12,866 nucleotides of DNA, taken from positions 1 to 12,866 of the forward strand of contig CATOCA020000054.1 of NCBI GenBank assembly GCA_951406725.2. The letters run 5' to 3'. Both the position numbers and the translations under genes were made by a program. Source of the stretch: Octopus vulgaris. Lineage: Eukaryota. The notes under the pieces are model-generated. The model saw nothing but the letters and a program-made list of their open reading frames with translations. It was not told the DNA's origin and did no database searches. Below are positions 977 to 12,798 of this stretch, in pieces (the first letter of the stretch is position 1; each line of letters opens with the position of its first letter).

Positions 977-2817
977 CCGGTTCCGTTTTCCGCAGAGAAA
1001 GACGCATTATTGCCTTTGCTCTGTGAAAAAGTTTGCATAGAAACGGCGAAATAACCCACTGTAGTTGCAAAACGTAAAACTCTAAGTCATAGAGATCACT
1101 ACAACACTTTGGTTAAAAATATTTTTAAAAATATATATATAAATATATACATATACACAGTAATTTTCATTTTCGCCGAAACGCACATGGTGCAAAAATA
1201 ACTGAATCAAGTTATCTCCTGCAAGAAAGAAAAAAGAAGCATCTCTCCTGAAAAAAATCCCGTAAACCAAAAAAAAAATAATCCAGACCACATTGTTGGA
1301 TTAAGTATCAATTTCATCTATTTCATATTTTATTTATTATTCTATTTTATCTTTCACTTAGGCCCACATCTTAGTTAAAGTTGCGATCGTCATTTTGTTT
1401 GTTTACATTTTCAATATCTGTTCTCGATATAATAATTTTCCAGATACTCTATCTTCTAATTAGCCTTAAGATTAAATTAAATAACGTTTAATATTGATAC
1501 CGTCAAATTAGCCTTAGGATTAAATTAAATAACGTTTAATATTGTTTAATATTGTTAATAATTATTGTTAATTAGCCTTAAGATTAAATTAAATAACGTT
1601 TAATATTGTTTTAATATTGTTAATAATCTTTCAGATACTCTATCTTCTAATTAGCCTTAAGATTAAATTAAATAACGTTTAATATTGATACCGTCAAATT
1701 AGCCTTAGGATTAAATTAAATAACGTTTAATATTGTTTAATATTGTTAATAATTATTGTTAATTAGCCTTAAGATTAAATTAAATAACGTTTAATATTGT
1801 TTAATATTGTTAATAATTATTGTTAATTAGCCTTAAGATTAAATTAAATAACGTTTAATATTAATAACGTTTAATATTGTTTAATATTGTTAATAATTAC
1901 TGTTAATTAGCCTTAAGATTAAATTAAATAACGTTTAATATTGTTAATAATTATTGTTAATTAGCCTTAGGATTAAATTAAATAACGTTTAATATTGTTT
2001 AATATTGTTAATAATTATTGTTAATTAGCCTTAAGATTAAATTAAATAACGTTTAATATTGTTAATAATTCTTCAGATACTCTATCTTCTAATTAGCCTT
2101 AAGATTAAATTAAATAACGTTTAATATTACCCACACTCTAATATAATATTTACATTGCTAATATATTTTCAGATACTCTATCTCCTGATTAGCCTTAAGA
2201 TTAACTAACGTTTTTATCCACACTCTAATATAATATTAATATTGCTAATATATTTTCAGATACTCTATCTTCTAATTAGCCTTAAGATTAAATTAAATAA
2301 CGTTTAATATTACCCACACTCTAATATAATATTAATATTGCTAATATATTTTCAGATACTCTGTCTTCTAATTAGCCTTAAGATTAAATTAAATAACGTT
2401 TAATATTACCCACACTCTAATATAATATTAATATTGCTAATATATTTTCAGATACTCTATCTCCAAATTAGCCTTAAGATTAAATAACGTTTTTTTTTTT
2501 TTTACCCACACTCTAATATAATATTAATATTGCTAATATATTTTCAGATACTCTATCTCCTAATTAGCCTTAAGATTAAACAACGTTTTTATCCACACTC
2601 TAACATAATATTAATATTGCTAATACATTTTCAGATACTCTATCCCCTAATTAGCCTTAAGATTAAATAACGTTTTTACCCAAATAACGTTTTTACACAA
2701 ACTTTAATATTGTTAATATTTCTTTTTCAAGTACTCTATCTTCTAATTAGTCTTAATATCTTCCTGTCTTCTCTCGAACATAATTAGATAGATAAACGGA
2801 TAGACGGATTATCCAGC
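977..2817 (+). promoter_or_regulatory. Putative 5' UTR / internal promoter of the LINE
   Basis: Lies between the TA flank and the ORF start (CCAGC-ATG, A at -3). I found only one + strand ATG (1187, 4-codon uORF MVQK*). It contains 5' stem-loops and a monomer array. Promoter function is inferred. Confidence 0.6.
1440..2758. repeat. AT-rich tandem monomer array, core TTAGCCTTA(A/G)GATTAA..AACGTTT, 17 copies plus 1 degenerate
   Basis: Core starts at 1460, 1508, 1572, 1651, 1699, 1763, 1827, 1907, 1961, 2025, 2093, 2189, 2276, 2372, 2468, 2564, 2651 and, degenerate, 2747. The 5' half has 48-80 bp units; the 3' half has 87/96 bp units carrying CCACACTCTAATATAATATT...TTCAGATACTCTATCT. Confidence 0.95.
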
Positions 2818-5800
2818 ATGTCCAGAGCATGGAGACGTGACGAGCTGGATTTATTCGTACGAGCATGGGAGTGCGCCGGCGGAGATAGCCCTAGGGAGGT
2901 GATTGCGGCTGCGCTGAAGAGCAGAGGCTACAAGAGGACAGCGGCTCAGATGGAGCGAAAGAGACAGGAATTCGTGCGCTCATATGCTCTTGTACGGTCG
3001 CACATTGGCGCACTTGATGCCATCTTTGAGAACGAGCGGGGCAAAGATGGCAAGAATGGAGACGATGAAAGAAGTCACCCCCACCTGGTGGACGCCCGGG
3101 AGGAGGTTTTGAATGAGAAACCTGCCCGGGAAGTGAACCCAGGTGCAAGTTCTCCAACCGGCAGCAAAGGCCATGGAGACGGAGAACCCGGTGAAGAGGT
3201 AGAGGGAGGAAGAAGAACTAAAAGAAGGACTGGAAGAGCTAAAGGAAAAGAAAAAGCTCAAGCAGGACCAAAGAGTGAAACAACCAGAAATAGAAGTGGA
3301 ACCGCAAAGGATGGAACCAAACAGCGCACACGGGTGTGTAGGTTCTACCTGAGAGGTTCCTGCTGGCATGGAAAGGAAGGTGCAGGCTGCCGCTTTGCAC
3401 ATCGGGGACCCTGCCACAGAGACACGAGGCAGATGGACAAACCATCAACACAAAGAAAAAGGGATGGACCACGCACCACCTGCCCCAAAGCGGAGGTACG
3501 CAGATGTTGTGCGCGTCACAAACAAGCCAACATGATGTTGTCGAAAGAGCAGCTGCTGAGCAACAATCTTTTTGTGCATGGCACAAAAGATTGTACAGCA
3601 GCTGACCTGGCTTCATCAAACCCAAGCCCGCAGGTGGGACTACCCACTATATACCAGACCACCACAGCAAACAGACACAGGATGGACACCGCCGGCAACA
3701 ACGTACACCTCACCTCGATACTCCTACTGAACATCAGAGGACTGCAAACACTCAGTAACAGGACAAAGATCCCGTTCCTGAGAGACTTTGTTGCATGCAA
3801 TCAAGCCATATGCATAGCACTTACAGAAACGCACCTGAAACCGGACATATCAGATGCGGAGTTACACATACCACAGTATGCTGTACTACGGACCGACAGG
3901 AAAAGAAAGGAGTCATGGATGTGTTGCTATGTACATCCGTGAGGACCTCACACCCCAGGTCCTCTTGTCATACTCAAACTCGGTGTGTGACACACTAATT
4001 GTACATATTAGGCAACTTGATGTAGTTGTGTGTGCTACATATCGCCCTCCAGATGCCCCAAGCCATGTGGGCAAGTTGAAGACTGCCTTATAAAAATAGA
4101 AGAAATTCTAACCACATTAGAACAACACATAGGTGTGCTTCTTATGGGAGACTTCAATCTGCCCAATGTCAGATGGCCCGAGGGCCTTTCTCTCCCAGGA
4201 ATGACAAGATGTGAACGAGGACAGGCGAGGTCCCTCCTGAACCTCATCAACACCCTGTACATGGAGCAGGTAATACTCCAACCAACCAGGGCAGGTAACA
4301 CACTGGATCTCTGCTTCACAAATGACATGGATCTCATCCATAATGTGAAAGTGACACCGACACTACTCTCGGATCACAACATGATAGAGCTGACCATGTA
4401 CGGGCCAAAAGAGAGCACGGACATGCAGCCTACAAGAAACCCTCAAAATCTTTCCAGCTTGAACTACCATAAGGCAAACTGGAAACAAATTGAGAAAGAG
4501 ATCCTCAAACAAAACTGGCCTAAATGTCTCTCCTCGCCAGACATCGACGTGAAACTTCAACAATTCATGTCTGTAATGCAAGCCATATGCTACAAATGTG
4601 TCCCAGAGAGAAAGGCCACTGTACACAAGAACAAAATCCCCAGAGAGAGGAAAATTTTAATGAGACGGCGTACGAAATTTTCAAATCGCCTAAACAAACA
4701 GATTGAAAGCAGTGAAAAGTCCCGCCTAAAAATAAAACTGTTGGAAATCGAAAAATGTCTGCAACTCTCCCATGAAAAAGAAAGAGCAGACAAAGAAGCC
4801 TGGAGCTATAGAAAACATAAAATCTAACCCCAGAGCTTTCTACAGGTATGCCAAAGAAACAGCTACAGTGCACTGTAGAATAGGGCCACTCCTCGAAAAG
4901 GATGGCACACTTACAGGAAAACCAATGAGGGTAAGTGAAATACTGAATGAGCAATTCAAGAGTGTTTTCACTCCACCCCTTGGGCATCTCCAAATCACCA
5001 ATCCAACTGACTTTTTTACCACTGCAGATATAAAATCAGAGGCGGCGACGATAGATTACATCGATATAAAGGAAGACGATGTAACCAAGGCTATAGATGA
5101 AATGAAAACAGACTCAGCTACTGGCCCCGATGGATTCCGGCAATCCTCCTAAAAGCATGTAAGAGAGTCCTAGCAAGACCACTGCAGTTCCTCTTTCAGA
5201 GCTTCCTTGCAGCTGGCAAACTTCCAGGAAAACTGAAGGAAGGTAAAATATGCCCCATTCATAAAGGAGGTAGCAGAGCGGAAGCCAAGAACTATAGACC
5301 TATCTCTCTGACCTCACACATCAGCAAGGTCATGGAACGAATAGTCAGAAGGAAGCTGATCACCTTCCTTGAAGAGAATGACTTGCTGCCCGACACCCAA
5401 CATGGTTTCCGACCAGGGAGAAGCTGTTTAACTCAGCTCCTACAACACTATGACTGGGTGCTGAAACGGCTGCTCAACCACTCAAATGTGGAAGTGATAT
5501 ATCTCGACTTTGCAAAGGCCTTTGATAAAGTCGATCATGGAATGATATGTCACAAACTGCGTGATCTCAACATAGTTGGAAAACTGGGAGAATGGCTTCA
5601 TGACTTTCTGAAGGATAGAAGTCAGGTGGTAGTAGCCAATGGGGCCACCTCCATTAACACACAAATAGTGAGCGGTGTTCCGCAGGGCACTGTTCTGGGA
5701 CCACTACTGTTCATAATGGCCCTCTCAGACATGCCCTCAGCCACGCAGAGAGCCACGATCACAAGTTATGCAGATGATACAAAAGTTTCACAGGCAATAC

Positions 5801-6678
5801 AGAACCCTGAGGACACTAAACACCTGCAATGTGAGCTGGACGAAATATACAAGTGGGCTGAAAAGAATAGCATGCAGTTCAATGCTGGAAAGTTTCAAGC
5901 TTTATACTATCAGCATGCAAAACTGAATGCAATACCCAATGAATACACTGGACCCGGAGGGATTGCAATCCCAGAGGCACAATCAGTGCGTGACCTGGGT
6001 ATTCACATGAGTGATGACGCGACCTTTCATGTACATGTTGCTAAACTGACAATGAAATGTAGACGGCTGGCTGGATGGATTCTTAGAACCTTTAGAACAA
6101 GAGAACAAGAAACCATGATGGTCCTCTGGAAGACACTTGTCCTAAGCCACTTTGACTATTGCTCTCAGCTATGGTCACCATCCAGTGTCAAGTTGATCAC
6201 AGAACTTGAGGCGATCCAACGAAGCTACACAAAGAAGATAGCCTCTATGCAGAATGTAAGCTACTGGGAAAGACTCAAGAGATTAAAATTATATTCCCTG
6301 GAGCGTAGGCGGGAAAGATATGCCATAATATACATCTGGAAGATCCTGGAGGGAAGTGTCCTGAACTTTGGCATCGAGAGTTACGCAAATGCCAGAACTG
6401 GGCGCCACTGCGTGGTGCCTAGGACTCCAAACCTGCCATCAAGATGTAGGACAAGATTCTGTGATAGCCTGGGCTTCCGAGGCCCACAGCTCTTCAATAT
6501 CCTCCCGAAGAACCTGAGAGACCTGCATGGGGTGGATACAGATGTCTTTAAAATGAAGCTGGATCTCTTCCTGTCAGGTGTCCCAGATGAACCAACTTCA
6601 CGGCAGGAGGGGCAGATGAGGGCAGCTGCATCGAACTCTCTCATGCACCAAATAGCAGTTGCTAGAAAGCCTCCATGA
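2818..6678 (+). CDS. LINE polyprotein (Myb/SANT-like, CCCH zinc finger, AP endonuclease, reverse transcriptase); 1286 aa when four 1-bp frameshifts are corrected
   Basis: ORF pieces 2818-3942, 3854-4093, 4030-4827, 4772-5152 and 5332-6678 join by +1 (~3901-3904), -1 (~4076), +1 (~4804) and -1 (~5137) indels. The joins read [20 protein letters not shown](F)[25 protein letters not shown] and GPDGF(P)AILLKACK...[19 protein letters not shown]. No in-frame stops remain after correction. Confidence 0.88.
2827..3003 (+). other. Myb/SANT-like (trihelix, Myb_DNA-bind_4-like) domain
   Basis: [13 protein letters not shown]...[30 protein letters not shown] follows the trihelix pattern W-x3-E-x2-L-x4-W ... 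IA-x2-L-x3-GY-x-RT-x2-Q-x3-K-x3-hydrophobic-x3-Y. It is divergent, lacking the helix-2 Trp and the QC..KW residues. Recognised by eye, no HMM run. Confidence 0.62.
3337..3402 (+). other. CCCH-type zinc finger (C-x7-C-x8-C-x3-H)
   Basis: [22 protein letters not shown], with the typical C-x-F-Y start and C-x-F-x-H end. It follows a Lys/Arg/Gly-rich low-complexity linker. Confidence 0.8.
3715..4395 (+). other. Apurinic/apyrimidinic-like endonuclease (EEP fold) domain
   Basis: Motifs in order: [46 protein letters not shown] (4369-4377). The catalytic N, E, Y, D, N, D and H residues are all present. Confidence 0.93.
5110..6010 (+). other. Non-LTR reverse transcriptase domain
   Basis: [62 protein letters not shown] (5767-5778), RDLGI. 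The downstream YCSQLWSP and [11 protein letters not shown] are typical of CR1-group C-termini. Confidence 0.97.
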
Positions 6679-6703
6679 AGTGAAACCAAGTAGCAACACC
6701 AAA

Positions 6704-6739
6704 TGGCGGTGCCCCAGCATGGCCACAGCTCATAAGCTG
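6704..6739 (+). other. 3' UTR tandem stem-loops (putative RT recognition element)
   Basis: TGGC-G-GTGC-CCCA-GCAT-G-GCCA (6704-6725), immediately followed by CAGCT-CATA-AGCTG (6726-6739), 7 nt upstream of the tail. Confidence 0.6.
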
Positions 6740-6746
6740 AAACTAG

Positions 6747-6761
6747 AATCAATCAATCAAT

Positions 6762-6762
<1 letters not shown>
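6747..6762 (+). repeat. (AATC)4 3' tail of the LINE
   Basis: AATCAATCAATCAATC starts 69 bp after the stop codon and abuts the TA array. Short tandem-repeat tails are typical of CR1/L2/RTE elements. Confidence 0.88.

Positions 6763-12774
<6,012 letters not shown>

Positions 12775-12798
<24 letters not shown>
12775..12798. repeat. (AG)12 microsatellite closing the compound array
   Basis: AGAGAG... directly follows the TA array and precedes unique sequence. Confidence 0.95.

Follow-up and report, generated by a model that had tools for sequence, protein, structure and literature searches.

R2 elements are single-ORF LINEs with an RLE nuclease and C2H2-type fingers, and the -1 frameshift site of HIV-1 gag-pol is U UUU UUA. 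An in-register X XXY YYZ heptamer is the general rule for -1 frameshifting, with U UUU UUG being a weak slippery heptamer, and older CR1 papers reportedly describe overlapping ORFs. In the accessible text of reviews, the way in which ORF2 of bicistronic LINEs is translated is treated as an open question (PMC3894237, PMC2881922). Frameshifting by -1 in LINEs has a precedent in Dictyostelium, where, according to the available part of a review, the ORF1 product of TRE5-A binds TFIIIB (PMC5911963). Within the accessible text of another source, Tx1 and R1 are the APE clades that contain most of the reported target-specific families (PMC4640811). Zenon occurs in molluscs and is a sister lineage to CR1 (PMC10294476); the text available describes it as having a poly(A) tail and no ORF1 (PMC13343379). 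ORF1 proteins outside types I–IV are placed in an unclassified type V, and the accessible text of this 448-element survey contains no mention of CCCH, Myb or SANT (PMC4120745). A 2026 repeat annotation of Octopus vulgaris listed 787 insertions from 13 CR1 families with recent activity; its main text, as far as available, contains neither "ORF" nor "target", and its supplement may list the family described below (PMC13282606). A literature search, with most subscription papers and Repbase Reports lying outside it, yielded nothing on a CCCH/Myb ORF1, a (TA)n-targeting CR1 or -1 frameshifting in CR1; in the available part of PMC5009743, HeT-A and TART were the sole non-LTR elements mentioned.

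The window studied here is the whole of a 12.9-kb contig from the 2.8-Gb genome of O. vulgaris, and it is laid out as (TA)n / LINE / (TA)n. We read it as a damaged copy of a young, two-ORF, (TA)n-dwelling LINE in which -1 frameshifting likely yields ORF2 as part of an ORF1-ORF2 fusion, and we assign this reading a probability of about 0.6. Its ORF1 looks uncatalogued, its (TA)n specificity is clear and it carries a candidate frameshift signal. The single-ORF organization claimed for it in an earlier note is an artifact of one copy.

Anatomy of the element and translation of ORF2

The LINE spans positions 977–6762 of the forward strand and lies between two (TA)n arrays, one at 142–976, which forms the 5' half of the target site in a layout that other copies show as well, and one from 6770, which forms the 3' half. 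The latter is a near-pure array of 6 kb (6770–12775) reaching to the contig end, and its length may be an assembly effect. The 5' UTR (977–2817) begins CCGGTTCCG and contains a sole ATG, at 1187, within 1841 nt; its length ranged from 1.6 to 3.1 kb in near-full-length copies. Tandem arrays with units of ~64 bp and ~96 bp and a variable copy number occupy 1430–2701 and constitute a putative monomer-type promoter. ORF1 of the family (2818–3730; 303 aa, stop TGA at 3728–3730) runs out of frame beyond 3456 in the window copy. ORF2, taken from its first AUG (3682–6678), encodes APE and RT in 998 aa when intact and is broken four times in the window copy, near 3901, 4076, 4804 and 5137. The 3' UTR (6679–6746) has two predicted hairpins (z -1.76) and a GGTGCCCCAGCATGGCC core common to the sister families, and it leads into a simple-repeat tail (6747–6762) that was (AATC)2–8, not poly(A), in 36 of 36 readable copies.

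ORF2 matched PF14529, PF03372 and PF00078 only, giving APE followed by RT with no RNase H or RLE domain, and from its C-terminal motif we take it to be CR1-like. By domain order and tail, the element is likely a member of the CR1 group. A quick RT tree of 55 rows, built without named CR1 references, placed the family on its own 21-row branch (SH-aLRT 100) within a 41-row group (96) that also holds esterase-ORF1 and PHD-ORF1 elements. Membership in R2 was considered and rejected, ORF1 being separate and no RLE domain being present; Zenon was rejected on account of the ORF1 and the (AATC)n tail.

The copies compared were the best 40 of 1962 candidates, window included, a sample that is biased to young, long copies and in which the sequences were 99% identical. 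A genome search with the 3' end gave no matches, so short truncated copies lie outside the sample. Among the 39 other full-length copies, ORF1 was 303 aa in 31, 261 aa in five and interrupted early in three; an ORF2 of 995–998 aa from AUG 3682 was found in 17, and both ORFs were whole in 13. The family is thus a young LINE with two ORFs, the second overlapping the first in the -1 frame.

The same -1 overlap was observed in three sister families (B, C and E) as in the window family (A), and in all four the ORF1 stop lies on APE motif I, 2 nt ahead of the APE Asn. A stop closes the -1 frame in A, C and E, and the open stretch starts three codons before an in-register heptamer, which is U UUU UUG in A and E and U UUU UUA in C. 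In the window, the closing TGA (3557–3559) is immediately 5' of the candidate slippery site (3569–3574), which reads U UUU UUG in 34 of the 39 other copies and is one T short in the window and in the remaining five. Family B has no AUG before APE, and 19 of its 20 copies carry a different heptamer, A AAU UUU, which lies one codon upstream of the corresponding position. An in-register X XXY YYZ motif was found together with a -1 frame open to the downstream domain. Given the amino acids encoded, the chance of such a heptamer is 0.011–0.035 in A, C and E and 0.15 in B; 4-fold sites are 40–62% identical among the four families, and TTA/TTG account for 12 of the 110 Leu codons in family A ORF2. 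The open overlap is in itself unremarkable in A, C and E (P 0.41–0.71). No structure was detected 3' of the heptamer in A (z +2.0 over 50 nt, +0.5 over 80 nt), nor a stimulatory one in C, E or the distant locus L223, and an H-type pseudoknot was absent from A, B, C and E; family B has a long stem (z -3.1 for the 80-nt span).

The start of APE could be parsed in 40 of 160 outside loci, and in 12 of the 40 a long ORF1 stands in -1 relation to ORF2, the others being truncated, broken, single-ORF or +1 (three overlap in +1). An in-register heptamer at most 16 codons from the opening of the ORF2 frame was present in 10 of the 12. When counted by lineage, with the host-genome families taken as one, the heptamer occurred in 9 of 11, whereas the background rate was 19 in 3809 codons (~10% expected; p ~7e-8), a figure that applies to a span of 22 codons chosen after the data had been seen; three of the nine hits are A-runs in Lys-rich stretches (P 0.2–0.3) and are weak. 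L099 and L149 have no heptamer, and the distant L223 and L224 show the pattern. In L090, which is 43% identical, U UUU UUA is followed by a hairpin 7 nt downstream, within the 5–9 nt expected of a stimulatory structure, in contrast to family A. AUG, CUG, GUG, UUG and ACG are all absent between the heptamer and APE in L090 (141 codons) and L224 (48 codons). Two esterase-ORF1 elements (L095:1447–1490 and L234:480–525) have U UUU UUA, a stop and then a 9-bp hairpin 11 nt downstream, and the hairpins differ in sequence at paired positions with pairing kept. In L222 (3635–3650), L228 and L096, ORF1 closes with U UUA AAC and a stop codon, and the ORF2 of L222 and L228 lacks an AUG before APE. Species-representative genomes of prokaryotes also encode relatives of ORF2, in at least 377 stretches (L216–L295), many of them on short contigs, which likely represent eukaryotic contamination of bins; a search of viral contigs returned only six weak RT matches.

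The retention of a slippery heptamer in the sister families and in AUG-less distant relatives points to -1 ribosomal frameshifting, which, judged from these sequence patterns, is probable in the window family and more so in the relatives that lack an AUG. The main competitor, a possible explanation to which we give clearly less credence, is that ORF2 initiates by itself at AUG 3682 (GUG in B), either by internal entry or once ORF1 has terminated ~47 nt downstream. On that view the element would otherwise be the same, with two ORFs and a TA target, and the heptamer would be an evolutionary remnant or simply follow from an F-L motif. An AUG in strong context does lie 16–18 codons before APE in A, C and E, with a GUG at the matching place in B (AGG.ATG.G in A and E, GGG.ATG.G in C, AGG.GTG.G in B), and family C has a second AUG directly behind the heptamer. 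The invariant spacing of the ORF1 stop in the four families and the lack of a stimulator in A also favor an independent start, and reinitiation has been described for SART1 and L1 in the accessible text of two papers (PMC5972666, PMC2881922). However, the AUG/GUG derives from Gly-Trp codons of ORF1 and could be produced by protein constraint. Independent initiation also leaves unexplained the low-probability codon choice at the heptamer, the different heptamer alongside in B, and the absence of any AUG or near-cognate start from L090 and L224.

The copies that have lost a T at the heptamer bear on both explanations. Such loss was seen in 6 of 40 copies versus 1 of 39 at another T6 run, a difference that is no more than suggestive and may reflect slippage by the reverse transcriptase. 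Three of these T5 copies have kept an intact 998-aa ORF2, in line with independent initiation. On the other hand, the T5 copies are scattered and form no clade on the copy tree, which is weakly resolved and from which five copies were left out for gaps or insertions; this fits repeated loss into dead ends rather than a breeding lineage, as frameshifting would predict.

The (TA)n target site

The suggestion in the earlier note that the ORF1 head might serve target selection holds in so far as the family is (TA)n-specific. The 3' junctions were located in (TA)4 or longer in 32 of 36 copies, compared with 3206 of 99,760 background positions (3.2%) in 20 arbitrary 5-kb stretches, and by a strict rule 26 of 33 copies had their 5' junction in TA. 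TA also adjoins 5'-truncated copies with different breakpoints, so that the features of a target-specific LINE were observed: the two junctions fall in a single repeat, well beyond the background rate, and do so in truncated copies as well. The sister families B and E have different tails, yet TA follows their 3' ends (read by eye in both, 17 of 18 readable copies in B and 2 of 2 in E); in family C the 3' end was not found. The 5' and 3' arrays of a single copy have interruption patterns in common (0.42 versus 0.26 ± 0.06; 56 of 10,000 shuffles), in a comparison that includes L044 and L051, which look like one duplicated locus. The exceptions were L033, which lies in (AAT)n, and L052, L031 and L175, which are without a clear 3' array; L031 is flanked by a ~19-bp duplication, read by eye, that contains (TA)4. 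We read this as insertion into pre-existing TA arrays, and on the junction sequences the (TA)n specificity appears clear. The 3' flanks of outgroup loci were readable in two cases (L216 and L224) and are not TA arrays, a number too small to link the Myb head to TA. Near L048, L054 and L178, a second copy or a related LINE lies a few kb upstream, which suggests repeated insertion into the same TA-rich sites.

It could be argued that the TA flanks were seeded by the element, or that they were kept by selection after random insertion, and are not targets. We consider this improbable. LINE 3' ends can reportedly seed microsatellites, an RTE being the example (PMC2887409), and the four exceptional copies could be taken in the same sense, but seeding does not account for TA next to 5'-truncated ends, for three different tails that lead into the same TA, for patterns shared by the arrays on both sides or for (TA)4 within the duplication at L031. 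With regard to selection, the rise from 3% to 89% in copies that are 99% identical is too large for survival bias.

The in-frame join of the window copy and the ORF1 protein

In the window, the frame from ATG 2818 is indeed open through the Myb-like segment, the basic linker and the CCCH finger into the APE motifs LLNIRGL and ETHL, as the earlier note had described. It does not extend as a single APE-RT ORF through 4395; it stops at TGA 3940–3942 after 374 aa. The multi-copy comparison that had been proposed as a check on the fusion went against it as a family trait, since an intact head in frame with APE was found in none of the 39 other full-length copies. The join is created by an extra A at 3456–3460 and another at 3524–3525, both private to the window copy, together with the one-T loss at 3569, which is common to five of the 39 others. 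The first run is A5 in the window, A4 in 38 of the others and A3 in one, and the second extra A is absent from all 39; a first comparison had already set both apart from 29 of 29 copies and had revealed one more T at 3569–3574 in 24 of 29. In total, the window copy carries six one-base indels of its own, each of them within a short run, and four private substitutions. One other copy equals it in private indel load, and most have none. Contigs from public runs (four runs from four studies) contain non-window alleles, X2, X3 and X15 at all seven indels and X6 at five.

These data show that the in-frame join of head and APE is private to the window copy; the indels may, as a guess, be assembly errors in an unplaced contig. 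ORFs that overlap in the -1 frame are one indel short of fusion, which explains the fused frame, and single-copy ORF fusions in small unplaced contigs should be treated with caution as they can be artifacts. Because the family has a normal ORF1/ORF2 pair, with the ORF2 AUG at 3682, which is the outcome that the earlier note had named as refuting its claim, the head is ORF1 itself and does not replace it, contrary to what had been proposed. A single-ORF family with Myb and CCCH fused to APE-RT at the DNA level can be dismissed as most improbable: besides the window frame, three of five family B copies picked for long frames are fused (L184, an unbroken 1327-aa frame, L185 and L188), but the insertion responsible is a different one in each (+4; +10; several), ORF1 is separate in the 15 B copies that had not been selected, the other 39 copies and the four public runs speak for the two-ORF state, and a word-based homologue search with ORF1 found none at near or longer lengths, which is weak evidence.

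ORF1 consists of a Myb/SANT-like head, a basic linker, a CCCH finger and a conserved C-terminal helix, the last of which is lost from the fused window frame. The Pfam models that the earlier note had named for these domains were recovered, all below their curated cut-offs: Myb_DNA-bind_4 (PF13837) at E=0.011–0.014 and CCCH models at E=0.05–2.1 in the window protein, with PF13837 in 6 of 23 ORF1 rows (best E 0.0017, again below cut-off). None of the 23 rows had a Pfam match to ORF1 types I–IV (RRM/CCHC, transposase-22, PHD, esterase), so that this ORF1 would fall under type V. The AF2 model of the head (aa 3–78; 2824–3051) contains three helices (7–19, 25–35 and 42–78; block pLDDT 84–97 across aa 1–70), and its top structure match was the GT-1 trihelix 2jmw (Z 7.8, rmsd 2.6, 59 aligned). 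The top VIA rows, namely GT-1, LUX, RAD and the DNAJC2 SANT, were tied at Z 7.4–7.8, all <8 and in a range where a match may reflect a common helix arrangement. The Foldseek half of the proposed check gave no match to the model at E<=0.001, and Atlas matches were below 0.9. The model is consistent, at the level of fold only, with a Myb/SANT (trihelix-type) three-helix head that has a long third helix. The single CCCH finger (3337–3402; C-x7-C-x8-C-x3-H) had MBNL-type fingers as its best PDB sequence matches (E=0.0008–0.015). Fold-level support for the two domains is better than the Pfam scores.

A HMMER search with ORF1 gave 31 matches, of which 22 were aligned and nine left out (fragments, a chimeric gene model and CCCH-only proteins). 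These relatives are stand-alone proteins of 265–371 aa with a Myb-like head, CCCH and a C-terminal helix, and those that are named are O. vulgaris gene models; the best named match to ORF2 was from Argonauta hians (62%). One gene model, P0132, which from its N-terminus we take to be lipin-like, ends in a piece of the ORF1 linker and is probably a mis-joined model or an exonized copy. CCCH fingers, often three, are present in the ORF1 of more distant relatives (P0150, L217, L223 and L224), and a Myb profile had no match at E<=1 in the 160 outside loci; we infer from this distribution that CCCH is older and that the Myb head was probably a lineage addition.

Proposed mechanism and comparison with known systems

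Under the preferred reading, in which ORF2 is reached by frameshifting, scanning ribosomes would pass through the AUG-poor UTR, start at ATG 2818 and in most cases yield the 303-aa ORF1p, whose CCCH finger, basic linker and helix would serve to coat the RNA. A few ribosomes would slip at U UUU UUG (codons 250–252) and produce a fusion of ~1,290 aa, so that a joined head-APE-RT protein may exist after all, at the protein level. The fusion would nick the TA array and reverse-transcribe from the (AATC)n tail via a microhomology of 1–3 nt; APE and the Myb head are both candidates for choosing the TA target. A more far-reaching scenario, which we regard as doubtful, is that, in an octopod lineage of the CR1 group, a CCCH ORF1 gained a trihelix Myb head, and that a gag-pol-like frameshift puts this head on APE-RT, where it steers insertion to (TA)n. 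This would make it a third target-specific APE lineage, with an R2-like Myb reader, and much of the CR1 group would generally reach ORF2p by frameshifting. A heptamer conserved at a defined codon makes the question of ORF2 translation testable, and a young, intact (TA)n-specific CR1-like family offers a way to find out which of the two, nuclease or Myb head, selects the insertion site.

With CR1-clade LINEs, the family shares an APE-RT ORF2, a separate ORF1, a simple-repeat tail and 5' truncation; it differs in its strong (TA)n specificity and in an ORF1 of Myb-like and CCCH domains instead of RRM, CCHC, PHD, transposase-22 or esterase, the types given in the accessible survey text (PMC4120745). 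This architecture, which the earlier note had recognized and which stands with the Myb part at fold level, is absent from that text and looks uncatalogued. As in R2, a Myb domain and a zinc finger occur in a target-specific LINE, whereas the nuclease here is APE, the finger is CCCH and ORF1 is separate. The family has in common with retroviral gag-pol an X XXY YYZ heptamer that is in register and lies at the opening of the -1 frame; unlike gag-pol, it has neither a 3' hairpin or pseudoknot nor a protease, and ORF1 continues ~50 codons past the site. TRE5-A and TRE3-A of Dictyostelium are likewise target-specific APE LINEs, with an ORF2 stated to require a -1 frameshift, a point taken from the available text of a review and not from primary data; they belong to the L1 clade, target tRNA genes and have an oligo(A) tail and a C-terminal zinc finger (PMC5911963). 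The target-specific R1 and Tx1 elements also use an APE nuclease and insert into multicopy repeats that, according to the accessible text, include microsatellites (PMC4640811), whereas the present family has a CR1-like ORF2, no CCHC ORF1 and a (TA)n target. By analogy with these systems, the element is predicted to behave as a LINE of CR1 type that frameshifts in the manner of TRE5-A and targets its insertions in the manner of R1 and Tx1.
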